Assembly: GCA_017464685.1 (NCBI GenBank)
Contig: JAFTYO010000052.1
Span: 1,251-65,250, forward strand
Length of the DNA stretch: 64,000 nucleotides
Direction of reading: 5' to 3'
From: Alphaproteobacteria bacterium
GTDB lineage: Bacteria; Pseudomonadota; Alphaproteobacteria; RF32; CAG-239
Shown here: piece after piece, positions 7,272 to 57,381 of the stretch
Layout: every line of letters starts with the position of its first letter
Numbering within the stretch: the first letter of the stretch is position 1
Translations under genes and position numbers: made by a program
The notes under the pieces: generated by a model
Databases searched by the model: none
What the model saw: only the letters and a program-made list of their open reading frames with translations
What the model was told of the DNA's origin: nothing

Positions 7272-7709
7272 TTATCTATCTTGCCCCATACCCAAGGCAT
7301 CCTTAAACATAGCATCGTGTGCTTGTGTCATTTCTTTATTAGTTTTTACAATTTCTTCATGACGCCATCTGGAGCTAATTACGCCGGCCCTTGGAATCAA
7401 TAATTCTTTTTGTTTTTCTGTTAATAATGGTTTTCCTGCAGCCATACGCTTATTATCTTCTTCCCTCAAACGCAGTAACTCTTCAGCTATATCTTCTTTA
7501 AACATTCTGGTTCTACCTTCAGAGGAAGTTAACTCAGGGTGGCTTTCCAAAAATTTATTCGCTTTTATTTTCTCTGCCACAAGAAGTTTTGAAAAATTAG
7601 AAGTTTTAACATCATCCTTATGTTCTTTTCCATCTTCATTAAACCATTCTTTTGCCTTTTCTTCCGGAACTACTATTCCTCCGGGACCTAAAACATAACC
7701 ACCACTCAT
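7272..7709 (-). CDS. Hypothetical charged protein (145 aa)
   Basis: ORF with AGGAG-like RBS (taggagatacttATG). An imperfect hairpin plus T-run terminator follows at about 7219-7245. No family recognised. Confidence 0.55.
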   Translation of the reverse strand: MSGGYVLGPGGIVVPEEKAKEWFNEDGKEHKDDVKTSNFSKLLVAEKIKANKFLESHPELTSSEGRTRMFKEDIAEELLRLREEDNKRMAAGKPLLTEKQKELLIPRAGVISSRWRHEEIVKTNKEMTQAHDAMFKDALGMGQDR

Positions 7710-7859
7710 AAGTATCTCCTATTAAAAACAACTATAACACTTACAATGTATCATATTTGTCCAAAAAATTCAAGAATTATTTTATAAAATTTTAAAAACA
7801 GTTGATTTAGAAATACAATTATAGTACTTATCATACGAACAAATTGGAATTATTCATTA

Positions 7860-27536: not shown

Positions 27537-27613
27537 TGGCGCGCTCGGCGGGGTTCGAACTCACAACCTTCTGATCCGTAGTCAGATGCTCTATCCAATT
27601 GAGCTACGAGCGC
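27537..27613 (-). tRNA. tRNA-Arg (anticodon ACG), CCA encoded
   Basis: The reverse complement folds by hand. Acceptor GCGCTCG/CGAGCGC, anticodon stem TCTGA/TCAGA with loop CT-ACG-GA, T loop TTCGAAC (one A-C mismatch in the T stem). A minus-strand terminator hairpin (AAACGAC...GTCGTTT plus a T run) follows at 27492-27531. Confidence 0.85.
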
Positions 27614-34330: not shown

Positions 34331-34529
34331 CAAAAACACCCAACCTGAGTTGGGTGTAAAAAGTTTTTTAAGCCATCTGACCGTTTATTACATTTCATAT
34401 CGAACCGCTTGGACAAGGTGGGTGCCATATAATCAGACCACGATCTGAACAGTGACAGCTCCCGATAATATAAACGTTGGCTCGGATAGACCATGCGGAA
34501 TAATACGTATCAGACAGCCTGCCTTTTAT
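34331..34529 (-). ncRNA. Candidate small non-coding RNA, possibly 6S RNA (ssrS)-like
   Basis: Lies between the convergent genes ychF and rplQ. A minus-strand promoter TTGATT(34564-34559)-17 nt-TACTAT(34541-34536) is present. The terminator ACACCCAAC-N4-GTTGGGTGT (34336-34357) has its U-run on the minus strand. A long closing stem pairs GCUGUCUGA..CGU.UUAUU with AAUAA.ACG.UCAGAUGGC. Internal motifs GAGCC.A...UUU.AUA and CACCUUG..CCAAG.GGUUC.A resemble E. coli 6S RNA as I remember it. Confidence 0.4.
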
Positions 34530-53794: not shown

Positions 53795-53808
53795 AAGCTC
53801 CTTTATCA

Positions 53809-53842
53809 AATGCCCGTTTATCTCGGATAAACGGGCATTTTT
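53809..53842 (+). terminator. Intrinsic terminator
   Basis: AATGCCCGTTTATC-TCG-GATAAACGGGCATT plus TTTT, a 14-bp stem. Confidence 0.8.
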
Positions 53843-53856
53843 CACATATAAGAACT

Positions 53857-54201
53857 CTATTTTGAACTGTCTTTTTTCCAAAGGAGAGCTTGCTTAACCA
53901 GACTATCACATAACAAATTAAGCTGAGAAAGTTTATTAATTGCAATAACATTAATATCATTACAAACTCTCAGTCTAAGTTTTATTCTTTCCACGATTAT
54001 TATAAAACTTTCTAAATATTGAATACGTTGTGCCGGAAAATAACAAGCTTGATGAAGATACTCAAATAATTTAAAACAGTCATCTTTTAAATCTTTACCA
54101 ATGCTATATTTATGTTCTTTATTAAATCTTGAAACTATTTTAAAAATTTCAATTAGCAAACTATAAGAATCGACATAAATCGGAAGATTTTCAAGTTTCA
54201 T
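53857..54201 (-). CDS. avd: DGR accessory variability determinant (Avd)-like four-helix-bundle protein
   Basis: 114 aa from ATG 54201, 2 nt after the RT stop (the track gives 118 aa from GTG 54213, overlapping the RT). MKLENLPIYVDSYSLLIEIFKIV..FNKEHKYSIGKDLKDD...LRLRVCNDINVIAINKLSQLNLLCDSLVKQALLWKK matches the Avd / 23S-rRNA-IVS protein pattern (LPIY, KYxxG, LRLxxDL, W-K tail) as I remember it. Confidence 0.6.
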   Translation of the reverse strand: MKLENLPIYVDSYSLLIEIFKIVSRFNKEHKYSIGKDLKDDCFKLFEYLHQACYFPAQRIQYLESFIIIVERIKLRLRVCNDINVIAINKLSQLNLLCDSLVKQALLWKKDSSK

Positions 54202-54203
54202 AA

Positions 54204-55538
54204 TCACCAACACATAAAATATTTTAATTTATATAAATTTTGGCGCATAATAATATTTTGACGAATAGATGTAACTAAATTAAACTTAGAGCAACTATCA
54301 TTTACAAGAAAACACTTCTTAAAATAAGTTTCACAAAGAATGCTCCATATTTTACATCTTAATTTTTGCGTCATATAATGTATCATAATTACAAAATAAG
54401 AATTAATACTTGCCATAAACTTTCCGCAAATTTCAGAAAGATATTTTCTGTTCTCGGCAAATAAACTTTTCAAAGCTTCCATATTATTTTTATCCTGATT
54501 GCTTTTTAAAAAGTTTTTAACACACAGATAAAGTTTATGTTTAACTCTACGCCCTATATAAATGCAATTTTGCTTTATAAAGGCTCCTAAAAATCCAACT
54601 CCGTGTTTATAATGCTGTAAATAAACTTTATTAGGATGCAAATCAGCATAAAGAACTTTTTTCAAAAACAAAGCAATTTTTTTATGCACAAATTTTAAAA
54701 AATCTTTATCCTGATGCACTATTATAAAATCATCAACATATCGAGCATAATGGGTAATACCTAAATCTTGAGTTATAAACTTATCTAATTTATCTAAGTA
54801 GAAATTAGCAAAAATTTGCGAAGTCAGATTACCAATCGGTAGCCCTTTATGTTTTGCTGACCAAAACAATGTTTTATGACAAGGCAAACCATTCCAATCC
54901 GATATTTTACCTTTGATTCGACAATTATTTTCAGGATTATTGAAAATAATCTGTTTAATCAACTTTAATATAATCTCTTTATCCGAAGCTTTATATTTTT
55001 CCTCTAAAAACTGATACAACATTTTATAGAGAACATTTTTATCAATATTCATAAAAAAGGAACGAATATCCATTTTTAAGACATAGCAATCTTTAGAATA
55101 ATTATCTGAACATTCCTTAATTTTCTGCGCCACACTTTGCACAGCTTTAAGAGTTCCTTTTCCTTTGCGGCAACTGTAGCTATCGTCAATAAACAGTTCT
55201 TCAAAAAGATGATTGATTTTGTTAATAATAAAATGATGTATCACTCTATCCCGAAAATTTGCAGCAAAAATTTCACGTTGAACAGGTTCTTTTACGACAA
55301 AAGCAACCGAGCGACCTATTTTATAACTACCGTTATTAATTTCGCGCCACATTTTAATCAACTCGCTTTCAAACCTGATTTCAAACTTTATGGCACTGGC
55401 AGTCCTACGCTTATTTTTACGACAATCAAAATAAGCTTCGAACAATTCCTCAAGCGCAATTTGCGGCTTCAGGTTTTCAGCTTGGTCAAAAAGTTCTAAC
55501 TGCTTTGCCTTTCTTTTTCGACGATAAATATTACGCAC
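54204..55538 (-). CDS. DGR-type reverse transcriptase
   Basis: 444 aa with a GTG start and AAGGA RBS. Motifs REIFAANFRDRVIHHF, LPIGNLTSQIFANFYLDKLDKF (the I/LGxxxSQ signature of DGR RTs) and the YxDD box YARYVDDFIIV. The TR lies 45 nt upstream. Confidence 0.9.
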   Translation of the reverse strand: MRNIYRRKRKAKQLELFDQAENLKPQIALEELFEAYFDCRKNKRRTASAIKFEIRFESELIKMWREINNGSYKIGRSVAFVVKEPVQREIFAANFRDRVIHHFIINKINHLFEELFIDDSYSCRKGKGTLKAVQSVAQKIKECSDNYSKDCYVLKMDIRSFFMNIDKNVLYKMLYQFLEEKYKASDKEIILKLIKQIIFNNPENNCRIKGKISDWNGLPCHKTLFWSAKHKGLPIGNLTSQIFANFYLDKLDKFITQDLGITHYARYVDDFIIVHQDKDFLKFVHKKIALFLKKVLYADLHPNKVYLQHYKHGVGFLGAFIKQNCIYIGRRVKHKLYLCVKNFLKSNQDKNNMEALKSLFAENRKYLSEICGKFMASINSYFVIMIHYMTQKLRCKIWSILCETYFKKCFLVNDSCSKFNLVTSIRQNIIMRQNLYKLKYFMCW

Positions 55539-55583
55539 AATTTTTCCTTTTGTTTTCTACAGAAATCCTCGTGTTTTTTATCC

Positions 55584-55696
55584 AAAAAGCCAGGGCAACC
55601 CGAACGTAATAGATGTCGCGATTGTTGTTGTTCCGGTTACCATTATTGATGTTGAGTTTCCAAGAGTTGTTAGAAGAGTACTCGACCGACGACCAA
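55584..55696 (-). repeat. DGR template repeat (TR), 113 nt
   Basis: Non-coding copy rich in AAY triplets. Its conceptual translation is WSSVEYSSNNSWKLNINNGNRNNNNRDIYYVRVALAF. It matches the VR at 96 of 113 positions. Confidence 0.9.
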
Positions 55697-56098
55697 CTCA
55701 AAGATAAAAAGTTGCAACTAGGGAAAATACGACAGAAAATAAATATCTCAACTTTCTGCTGTGTGCAACCCTTTTTAAATAAAATACAGGCCCTCTCCAA
55801 ACGGTTTTCATTATAAGCATATTTTTATTTTTCTTATTTATATTTATAACTACTGGGCGTTTGAACTCTCGCCGCCAGATTTCTGCTTCACTATTTATAT
55901 AACGTTACTCATTAAACACTTTTATTTTATCTGTCACACAATTACTTGCAACTTCTTTAATAAACCTGTTTAATTTTATTAAATTTTCTCAACTTAAATC
56001 CTGTTTCAAAAATTTTTTATAGCCTTACGGCTATACACTTTTTATTTTATTTTTTCTTTTCTTACTTCTCCTTCTTGTTCCTGTTGTTTCTCTTGTTC

Positions 56099-56135
56099 GC
56101 CGCCCCGTTTTCTATACGGGGCGGCATGGTGCCGC
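56099..56135 (-). other. GC-rich hairpin element 28-64 nt downstream of the VR / target stop
   Basis: GCCGCCCCG (56099-56107) pairs with CGGGGCGGC (56117-56125), giving a 9-bp all-G/C stem with a 9-nt loop. An overlapping alternative is GCGGCA-TGG-TGCCGC (56121-56135). No U-run follows on the minus strand. Confidence 0.6.
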
Positions 56136-56160
56136 TCCGGATTAGCCGTCGCTAGGGCTA

Positions 56161-57306
56161 TTAAAAAGCCAGGGCAACCCGAACGTAATAGACGTCGCGA
56201 AAGCTGGTGTACCGGAGACCATAACCGATGCCGAGGTACCAAGAGTAGTAAGAAGAGTACTCGACCGACGACCAATAATAATTATTCGTTAAGACTTTTG
56301 CATCAACTCCTTTATTGGCAAGCGCTGTTAATGTGTTATTTACTATCGTCTTTGTAGTCCCTGTCGCTCCACTTGTACCACTTCCTGACGTCATTTTACT
56401 TACATCTGTTCCGTATAACAACGCCAGTTCTCCAATGGCTGGTAAATACCAGTTACCTGCACCGGCTATCGCATCTGAACTGCTCACTTCCGGTGGATAA
56501 AAACTTATTGCTGCTTTGGCTGCTGTCGGCGCACAATATCTATTATAACTTGATGTGCCAACTGCATAACTTCCGTTTGTGCAATTACTATATGCCGGTG
56601 TCGCTGTCGCAAATTTAGCCGTGTTTTCTTTTCCGCTATATAACTCTATATCGTCATTTTGGAACCCTGTTAGCATTAATGCTGAGCTGCTATAATTTGT
56701 TAATCCGCTTACATCTGTCCTATATAAACCGAACATTAAATATGCATAACTATTATCATACGGATTTTCAGGGTCAAATGCATAAGTTGTGCTATCAGAT
56801 GTTAAATTTCTTAAATTTATTACTCTTCCATGCTCTGCCCTAAAGCCTTCTGCCTCGGCCTCAGCTGTGGTATAAGGCATTCCACCTTTTTCTGCCGATA
56901 GGGCAAACACTACTCCAATTGCTGTTTTTGAACTGTCATATTCATCAACACTGCCACAACTTCCGTCAGAATAAAAAACATCGCCAAGTGCGCATTTTGT
57001 CTCTTTAGGACCGGCACAAATTGTTAATGTTTTATCTTCCGGACATTGAACTATCTTTCCACACCACTCGGACTTATCATCGGTCGTAAAACCATATTCT
57101 AAACAATTTTTTTCTTTTGCTACACATTTTTTATATGTTAAATCAAACGGACAATACATATATCCGTCTTTTGGACAACCCTCAACATCTTCTGTGGAAT
57201 AGCCTAACATAAAACAATCTGGAACTGTATTGCAATCTAATGCTAATATTTCACTATGGGCAATTGTTAAAACTGTTATTATACTTCCTGCCACTTTCAC
57301 TCTCAT
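56161..57306 (-). CDS. DGR target protein: secreted, Cys-rich N-terminal region plus DUF1566/C-type-lectin-fold C-terminal domain
   Basis: I prefer ATG 57306 (GGGGAA 5 nt upstream), which gives MRVKVAGSIITVLTIAHSEILA (signal-like). The track start GTG 57351 lies inside a 34-bp palindrome. NWYLPAIGELALLYG and YYWSS are DUF1566 (Lcl C-terminal) hallmarks. There are 14 Cys in the first ~130 residues. Confidence 0.8.
   Translation of the reverse strand: MRVKVAGSIITVLTIAHSEILALDCNTVPDCFMLGYSTEDVEGCPKDGYMYCPFDLTYKKCVAKEKNCLEYGFTTDDKSEWCGKIVQCPEDKTLTICAGPKETKCALGDVFYSDGSCGSVDEYDSSKTAIGVVFALSAEKGGMPYTTAEAEAEGFRAEHGRVINLRNLTSDSTTYAFDPENPYDNSYAYLMFGLYRTDVSGLTNYSSSALMLTGFQNDDIELYSGKENTAKFATATPAYSNCTNGSYAVGTSSYNRYCAPTAAKAAISFYPPEVSSSDAIAGAGNWYLPAIGELALLYGTDVSKMTSGSGTSGATGTTKTIVNNTLTALANKGVDAKVLTNNYYWSSVEYSSYYSWYLGIGYGLRYTSFRDVYYVRVALAF
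56163..56275 (-). repeat. DGR variable repeat (VR), the last ~37 codons of the target gene
   Basis: Encodes WSSVEYSSYYSWYLGIGYGLRYTSFRDVYYVRVALAF*. It has 17 differences from the TR, all at TR adenines. Confidence 0.9.
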
Positions 57307-57347
57307 ATTTGTTCCCCATATTAGTTCTACATGTTTATTAAACCTTA

Positions 57348-57381
57348 ACACGGACTTTAAACGATCGTTTAAAGTCCGTGT
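57348..57381. repeat. Palindromic element copy 1 (34-bp perfect palindrome)
   Basis: ACACGGACTTTAAACGATCGTTTAAAGTCCGTGT, centred on CGATCG, 42 nt upstream of the DGR target ATG. Confidence 0.9.

Follow-up and report, generated by a model that had tools for sequence, protein, structure and literature searches.

The 64,000-nucleotide stretch analysed here (hereafter the window; Alphaproteobacteria bacterium, assembly GCA_017464685.1, contig JAFTYO010000052.1) very probably carries a complete chromosomal diversity-generating retroelement (DGR), formed by a target gene unit and by a putative operon in which a structured RNA leader, the template repeat (TR), the reverse transcriptase (RT) gene and the avd gene follow one another. 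This order, in which avd stands behind the RT gene, is derived and has become fixed within a single lineage. The whole cassette (target, TR, RT and avd) is on the minus strand.

The repeat pair and the target gene

The element is recognised by a direct repeat of 113 nt at positions 55584-55696 and 56163-56275, which aligns without gaps at 85% identity. All 17 mismatches fall at adenines of the first copy, and over the 113 nt there are no non-adenine differences; with about 30 adenines in 113 positions, the chance that every mismatch would fall on an A is ~1e-13 or less. The second copy corresponds to the last 37 codons of an open reading frame (ORF, 56161..57351), ending at its stop codon, and 15 of its 17 differences affect the first or second position of a codon. 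This mismatch pattern, together with the position of the repeat at the end of the ORF, identifies 55584-55696 as the TR and 56163-56275 as the variable repeat (VR), both on the minus strand. The TR contains 11 AAY codons in the frame of the VR, which sets an upper bound of ~7.6e17 protein variants. The 3' 30 nt of the VR (56163-56192, minus strand) are identical to the 3' end of the TR, have the GC-rich core GTTCGGGTTGCCCTGGC and show no A-to-N changes despite the A's present there, as in an initiation of mutagenic homing (IMH) segment; one passage of Wu et al. 2018 (PMC5758913) reports that IMH and IMH* are identical in some DGRs.

The target gene most likely starts at ATG 57306 (56161..57306, minus strand; 381 aa), a start that was also called independently on near-identical contigs. 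Its product has a signal-peptide-like N-terminus, recognised by eye, then a Cys-rich region, and a C-terminal domain ending in the VR that matches Lcl_C (PF07603, DUF1566; residues 277-376, E 2.7e-4) under the gathering score. These features suggest a secreted, Cys-rich protein with a variable tip of the C-type-lectin fold. The original prediction, made from the sequence alone, had placed the target at 57306->56161 with a 3'-terminal VR, and then the TR, a 45-nt spacer and the RT from GTG 55538 to TGA 54204; the ORF and repeat coordinates agree with it throughout.

Identity of the reverse transcriptase and of Avd

The RT gene (54204..55538, minus strand) encodes 444 aa; an in-frame TAG lies 7 codons 5' of its GTG and an AAGGA 8 nt 5' of it. 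The product has an RVT_1 domain (E 4.8e-18) with the motifs IGNLTSQ and YVDD. The SQ motif is diagnostic of DGR-type RTs. The best match in the PDB is bRT of the Bordetella phage BPP-1 (8ub7, E 1.8e-29), far ahead of any group II maturase (7e-07 at best), and in PHROG the protein matches the RT family phrog_1423 (E 3e-83). Homologues number more than 7000, with ~57% identity to the closest that are distinct, and the named relatives come from metagenome-assembled genomes (MAGs) of host-associated Alphaproteobacteria.

A different reading would make this protein the RT of a group II intron, a retron or a defence system, with the repeat pair a coincidence. Weak matches to models of these families do exist, but all stay far under the NCBIfam cut-offs (group II TIGR04416, 96 vs 300; retron St85, 73 vs 235; Drt3a, 61 vs 200; Drt2, 36 vs 390). 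Moreover, no intron or retron RNA family was found with Rfam, bRT is ahead by 22 orders of magnitude among solved structures, and the repeat is adenine-specific (P ~1e-13). We regard this alternative as refuted for all practical purposes: the RT is of the DGR type, as had been proposed, and not of the group II, retron or Abi type.

Compared with its closest relatives (described below), the RT has at its N-terminus (55503-55538) ~12 extra Lys/Arg-rich residues, MRNIYRRKRKAK; the start ATG of those relatives aligns with codon 12 of the window gene, which has no start codon there.

The avd gene (53857..54201, minus strand) begins with ATG 54201, 2 nt after the RT stop, and ends with the stop at 53857, encoding 114 aa; GTG 54207, TTG 54210 and GTG 54213 are alternative in-frame starts. 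A frame beginning 2 nt behind the RT, or slightly overlapping it, had been anticipated, and so had an Avd-type four-helix product. In fact, the protein matches PF22296 (bAvd; E 1.3e-7, 32.5 bits, cut-off 40), NF033474 (E 7.6e-7, 29.4 bits, cut-off 80) and phrog_3206, 'Avd protein of DGR' (E 2.9e-9), and PF22296 is assigned to it in the precomputed annotation of the database. Homologous small ORFs (phmmer E 1e-30 to 1e-6) occur at 66 of 80 related loci, and in ~60 of the related DGRs with an Avd homologue avd fills the canonical slot. A profile built from the locus-derived Avds recovered 2609 proteins, annotated as PF22296/PF05635 'four helix bundle protein'. The AlphaFold model (predicted local distance difference test score, pLDDT, 95.1) has four long helices and can be superimposed on the bAvd structure 4dwl and on the 8ub7 Avd chains with a template-modelling (TM) score of 0.83-0.88 and a root-mean-square deviation of ~1.5 A; the protein is basic (pI 9.05). 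The link to bAvd comes from this fold comparison, the search of the PDB by sequence having returned no bAvd match. The curated models were matched under their cut-offs, so it is the comparative and structural evidence that decides the assignment to Avd.

Those sub-threshold scores (32.5 vs 40 and 29 vs 80) could instead point to a stand-alone four-helix protein of the 23S rRNA intervening-sequence protein (IVP) type, beside an Avd-less DGR of architecture A, and the best fold matches, 2gsc and 2rld, are indeed proteins of unknown function. This is very improbable. The homologous gene fills the canonical avd slot in ~60 related DGRs, its overlap with the RT gene is conserved among the closest relatives, and the TM score to bAvd, the phrog_3206 match and the pI all agree with Avd. 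Moreover, the Avds most like that of the window are exactly those of the loci whose RTs are closest to its RT, which argues that RT and avd evolved together. The Avd profile found no second Avd elsewhere in the window.

Origin of the gene order

In a scan limited to one genome for each species, 80 loci were found whose RTs are related to that of the window (46-58% identity). Each of them was annotated for RT, Avd and adenine-specific TR/VR pairs; such pairs are present in 55 of the 80. In 60 of the 66 loci with a detectable avd this gene is upstream of the RT, and these 60 follow the order target(VR)-avd-TR-RT wherever repeats were detected nearby. The loci whose RTs are closest to that of the window (L001-L006, all from Alphaproteobacteria MAGs) have avd directly downstream of the RT in six cases out of six, and the same succession of RT and bAvd occurs in all six further close homologues that were looked up individually (L085-L090). 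In a neighbour-joining tree of 75 RTs the window and L001-L006 form one clade (300/300 bootstrap replicates), which is sister to alphaproteobacterial DGRs of canonical order and nested among canonical loci. Since avd is behind the RT in 12 of the 12 closest distinct loci, the clade is fully supported and the order is canonical nearly everywhere else, TR-RT-avd is best read, on phylogenetic grounds, as derived, the product of one rearrangement that became fixed in this lineage: avd left its place between target and leader for one behind the RT, and the module of leader, TR and RT stayed intact. The atypical order recognised in the original prediction is therefore real, as coordinates and relatives agree, but it is no one-off, being fixed in a lineage within a class of elements where order variation is common.

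The same order was not seen among viral contigs: of 80 scanned, 67 have a detectable avd, 64 of these are canonical and none is TR-RT-avd. The exceptions are two contigs with an inverted avd downstream and an IMG/VR contig (L091:2266-5120) with the permutation RT-avd-leader-TR-target, in which avd stays beside the leader.

Within the TR-RT-avd subclade (L001-L006 and L085-L090) the leader-TR-RT-avd core is arranged as in the window in 11 of 12 loci, L006 being the exception. The junction between RT and avd is an overlap of the avd ATG with the RT 3' end in most of them, of 14 nt in 10 of the 11 overlapping junctions and of 17 nt in L088; L004 has a 27-nt gap. Where the overlap was inspected, its sequence is ATGnnnnTGTATAA or a near variant of it, and a GGAG-type Shine-Dalgarno motif lies inside the RT gene, whereas the window has TGA-TT-ATG, a junction remodelled relative to the subclade. 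In the seven relatives of the subclade tested with Pfam, the VR is internal to the target or lies in a truncated ORF. Targets are upstream and inverted in L002, L005 and L090, downstream in L003, L085 and L086, and upstream on the same strand in the window; the position of the target is free within this lineage.

Comparison with described DGRs

The element shares with the BPP-1 DGR (mtd-avd-TR-brt) a C-terminal VR in a target with a (here putative) lectin fold, an adenine-specific TR, an RT homologous to bRT, a four-helix basic Avd, an invariant GC-rich 3' end of the repeat and a GC inverted repeat 3' of the VR. It differs in being chromosomal rather than phage-borne, in having avd behind the RT and not between target and TR, and in the length of the RT (444 aa vs 328 aa in BPP-1). 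The layout of the RNA is also different: BPP-1 has hardly any non-coding RNA 5' of the TR, where the avd coding sequence stands, and a spacer of ~140 nt 3' of it, whereas in the window ~130 nt of structured, non-coding leader precede the TR and no more than 45 nt separate it from the RT.

The canonical avd-leader-TR-RT loci of our set (L007-L080; gut Alphaproteobacteria, Bacteroidota, Legionellaceae, candidate phyla radiation (CPR) and others) correspond to architecture B1 of Wu et al. 2018 (PMC5758913). Their RTs are 46-54% and their Avds 27-41% identical to those of the window, and they share with it the leader beside the TR, the short TR-RT spacer, the type of VR and the GC hairpin after the VR. 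The difference lies in gene order only, avd being placed between target and leader, with its stop abutting or overlapping the first bases of the leader. The element of the window is thus a DGR of the usual parts and a lineage-specific order variant: each part has its homologue in canonical elements, and no change of mechanism is expected.

The main text of Wu et al. (PMC5758913) describes 48 architecture variants, which follow the RT tree, and defines class B by the presence of avd, TR and RT only, with the subtypes avd-TR-RT (B1), avd-RT-TR (B2) and TR-(avd)-RT (B3). As far as those descriptions go, the window cassette falls in class B and, with TR-RT-avd on one strand, corresponds to no subtype of the three. 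The full texts searched, to which the supplementary list of the 48 variants does not belong, contain no match to TR-RT-avd or RT-TR-avd as a gene order; the matches to 'RT-avd' that were examined all refer to the RT-Avd protein complex, and Roux et al. 2021 contains no discussion of avd or architecture. TR-RT-avd is therefore not among the described main DGR types, but may already have been catalogued.

A structured leader between target and template repeat

The 464 nt between target and TR (55697-56160) contain no ORF that matches any family. A search of the six frames with the Avd profile, filters off, gave at most 0.6 bits, vs 141.7 for the real avd, so that a hidden or decayed avd in the gap is ruled out. 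The original prediction had described this slot as a long AT-rich non-coding stretch devoid of any credible ORF. The non-coding nature of the interval stands, and what has to be revised is the idea of a mere AT-rich spacer: its TR-proximal ~130 nt form a structured leader.

This leader (55697..55827, minus strand) is directly 5' of the TR. In two alignments (A3 and A7) of the window with ten subclade members, RNAalifold gives a fold of four elements: P1, which is a hairpin of 10 bp, a U6/A6 element, and the nested helices P3 and P4. The window retains P3/P4 intact (55711-55771), followed by the U-rich/A-rich element (55771-55786). Covariation points to a conserved structure: 95.2% of the alignment cells are paired, vs 43-63% when the partners are slid, and 16 pairs are changed on both sides, vs 8.4+-1.8 in shuffles (reached in 0 of 500). 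A covariance model of the leader, R1, matches the window at 55687-55827 with 76.3 bits (E ~4e-16), the alphaproteobacterial sisters with 62-81 bits, and Bacteroidota, Legionellaceae, CPR, Actinobacteria and some viral contigs with 17-48 bits. An Rfam search of the gap, the TR and the spacer returned no family, even at E up to 1.

In canonical relatives the R1 match is always between the avd stop and the TR. From this position the leader is judged to be ancestral to the whole RT clade, avd being the part that moved. Loci L007-L080 and L092-L102 generally have ~90-130 nt of structured non-coding RNA between avd and TR, with ~10-45 nt between TR and RT, a layout that reverses that of BPP-1. L006, the exception in gene order, has an R1 match of 89 bits on the strand of its inverted TR: in L006:7617-7854 the leader (7719-7854, minus) and the TR (7617-7728, minus) stand downstream of avd, on the strand opposite to RT-avd, and this leader-TR module faces the flagellin target. 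The joint inversion indicates that leader and TR moved as one unit.

On the other side of the TR, the spacer (55539..55583, minus strand; 45 nt) contains the AAGGA of the RT gene. Its length is ~40 nt in the subclade and, judged from RT match positions, ~10-45 nt clade-wide. The TR end is spanned by a U5/A6 stem whose loop is GGAU (55573-55591); relatives have conserved a similar U6...A6 element there. When leader, TR and spacer are aligned together, RNAalifold predicts a 15-bp duplex between the leader U6-AUU-A6-G and the C-U6...A6 of the spacer and TR 3' end, in which a few positions co-vary (UA to CG, UA to AU). The TR of BPP-1 is bracketed by a similar duplex; there, the ~140-nt spacer wraps around bRT, is bound by Avd, supplies the primer and base-pairs with a segment of avd further upstream (bioRxiv 10.1101/2023.10.23.563531; structures 8ub7 and following, Handa et al.). 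Both U/A elements are near-palindromic and could equally form two local hairpins, so the long-range duplex is put forward as a hypothesis. A broader and tentative proposal, which we think rather unlikely as it stands, is that in the RT clade including the window the scaffold for protein binding and priming resides in the ~130-nt 5' leader, with the leader U6-AUU-A6 pairing with the C-U6...A6 of the TR end, and that leader and TR form a portable unit. If so, the pairing would bring the leader to the initiation site, and a portable module would explain the position of avd behind the RT, the inversion in L006 and the seven-fold copies found in L015 and L053.

The target-proximal part of the gap contains a GC-rich inverted repeat (56099..56125, minus strand), with a perfect 10-bp stem and a 7-nt loop, 37 nt 3' of the VR; the hairpin is present after the VR and absent after the TR. 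Comparable GC hairpins occur 25-37 nt past the VR in 11 of the 13 relatives examined. A passage of Wu et al. (PMC5758913) states that in BPP-1 and Legionella a GC inverted repeat is needed for efficient homing, and by analogy the repeat of the window is likely to be a target-recognition hairpin or cruciform. A terminator-like hairpin with a T-run follows the target gene (56008..56035, minus strand, with a match on the plus strand too); it is a consensus match, in a scan in which 4 were found vs 2.2 expected. Between the two hairpins there is a purine-rich, A/G-only-like run, GAACAAGAGAAACAACAGGAACAAGAAGGAGAAGTAAGAAAAGAAAAAATAAAATAAAAAG (56036-56098, minus strand), without counterpart in the relatives. 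In the region of the relatives that aligns with the AT-rich stretch of the window, -35/-10-like hexamers can be recognised by eye.

Proposed mechanism and state of the element

On the model of the BPP-1 and Legionella paradigm, two transcription units can be proposed. The first would be the target gene transcript, ending at the terminator-like hairpin 56008-56035. The second would start in the gap, include leader, TR and spacer, and continue into RT and avd, ending at a 15-bp hairpin (53808..53840) between avd and a convergent 344-aa gene; a T-run follows this hairpin on the plus strand, and it is likely a terminator shared with the 3' end of the DGR operon. The RT would be translated from GTG 55538, with the AAGGA 8 nt 5', and Avd at the TGA-TT-ATG junction, through coupling or re-initiation. 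The RT, together with the basic Avd oligomer, may then bind the leader/TR/spacer RNA as a ribonucleoprotein, the TR being copied to cDNA with misincorporation opposite adenines. The cDNA would replace the VR, with homing guided by the invariant GC-rich 3' segment and by the downstream GC hairpin. The outcome would be up to ~1e17 C-terminal variants of a secreted lectin-fold protein.

Several observations weigh against an ordinary, working member of the lineage. The window is the most divergent member of its clade in RT, Avd and leader alike: its RT is on a long branch, its Avd shares no more than 27-43% identity with the relatives aligned to it and departs from them at several nearly invariant residues, and in its leader the 5' hairpin P1 is degenerate. 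Support for the leader structure is comparative, as the single-sequence folding energy of this region of the window is no better than that of shuffles (z = -0.05), and a promoter scan of the gap gave matches no commoner than in shuffles. The VR hairpin has a 7-nt loop vs a tetraloop in most relatives. In the RT, V383 replaces a nearly invariant Gly, and the VR is identical in the window and in three near-clonal contigs, so that no ongoing diversification can be seen at the consensus level.

The last two points come from four near-clonal contigs (L081-L084), which share 99.94-99.98% nucleotide identity with the window; three of them cover the VR, the TR is identical in all four, and 1-5 single-nucleotide polymorphisms (SNPs) occur elsewhere in the 4-9 kb compared. 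Codon 383 of the RT (54391), the Gly of the SINSYxG motif in the C-terminal region, encodes Val in the window and Gly in 4/4 of these contigs and in nearly all homologues. V383 is the only difference in the cassette between the window and its near-clones, and it may be a mutation that damages the protein or else an artefact of assembly.

The cassette might thus be a recently inactivated or decaying DGR, anatomically complete and with a target that is no longer diversified. The G383V change, found in the window alone among five near-clonal copies, the divergent Avd, the degenerate P1 and the invariant VR in samples that differ by 1-5 SNPs elsewhere all agree with such a state, to which we give a minor share of the probability. 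All three ORFs are intact, however, and the lack of any non-adenine difference between TR and VR over 113 nt indicates that, on the time scale of point mutation, homing last took place recently. The near-clones carry G383 and are too close to one another for a consensus change in the VR to be expected; the comparison of VRs among these assemblies is therefore uninformative on activity. Moreover, cellular DGRs are generally reported, as cited in PMC8632793, to be rarely active. A complete DGR is the reading that we retain.

Flagellin targets and repeat arrays in related loci

The target of the window, probably secreted, Cys-rich and Lcl_C-like, contrasts with those of its relatives. In the subclade, the targets of 7/7 relatives tested with Pfam are flagellins (L086:5776-8073, L090:1288-3465(-), L005:2983-5310(-), L006:8134-10536, L085:5923-7442, L003:7806-9227 and L002:4235-5326(-)), with Flagellin_N above the gathering score in 7/7 and Flagellin_C in 4/7. 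An Lcl_C-like insert ends at the VR, which makes the VR internal; in L086 it covers aa 426-463 of 765, and 21/21 mismatches are adenine-specific. Internal VRs in lectin-type targets are described as rare in a passage of Wu et al. 2018 (PMC5758913). In the literature searched the word 'flagellin' had one mention, in a list of target annotations (PMC6642488).

In L002 (4235-4253, minus strand) the flagellin ORF ends at a TAA inside the VR, and the TR carries the same TAA (GAG TAA TCT AAT AAC). Adenine mutagenesis could possibly change this templated stop into sense codons and so act as an on/off switch. In L087 (3222-3301) the flagellin is split at the VR into a Flagellin_N and a Flagellin_C ORF.

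Two gut MAGs, labelled Azospirillum and Pseudomonadota, have seven tandem leader-TR units, ~270 nt apart, between avd and RT (L015:4009-5990 and L053:758-2700), in which each TR differs in sequence and length. The leader is duplicated, in two copies, in L008, L009, L030 and L060. These leader-TR arrays have only one matching VR within the DNA examined.

Chromosomal neighbourhood

The element is flanked on one side by gyrB, gpsA, a penicillin-binding protein gene, rsmH, mraZ, obg, rpmA, rplU and a gene for an SNase-like nuclease, and on the other by tRNA-Arg(CCT) and genes of polysaccharide or teichoic-type biosynthesis. No phage genes were seen in the window, and these housekeeping flanks confirm the chromosomal setting that had been proposed. 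The GC content is 33.9% in the window, 29.5% in the RT gene and 26.1% in avd; the host is a low-GC alphaproteobacterium, probably associated with the gut. The window also contains a 6S RNA gene (34366-34523, minus strand; Rfam RF00013, 61 bits) and ordinary tRNA genes, including tRNA-Asp (1384-1460) and tRNA-Arg(ACG) (27537-27613).

Implications

Nothing in the cassette is categorically new, and its value is comparative. The relatives, outside the window, suggest that flagellins of gut bacteria are diversified by DGRs, which would matter for host-microbe recognition. The polarised relocation of avd means that, within this RT clade, both the position of avd and the presence of its coding sequence 5' of the TR are dispensable, whereas the structured non-coding leader always stays with the TR. 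This leader spans Alphaproteobacteria, Bacteroidota, Legionellaceae, CPR and viral contigs; wherever it occurs the TR-RT spacer is very short, and the combination points to a DGR RNA layout unlike that of BPP-1, the only one structurally solved.

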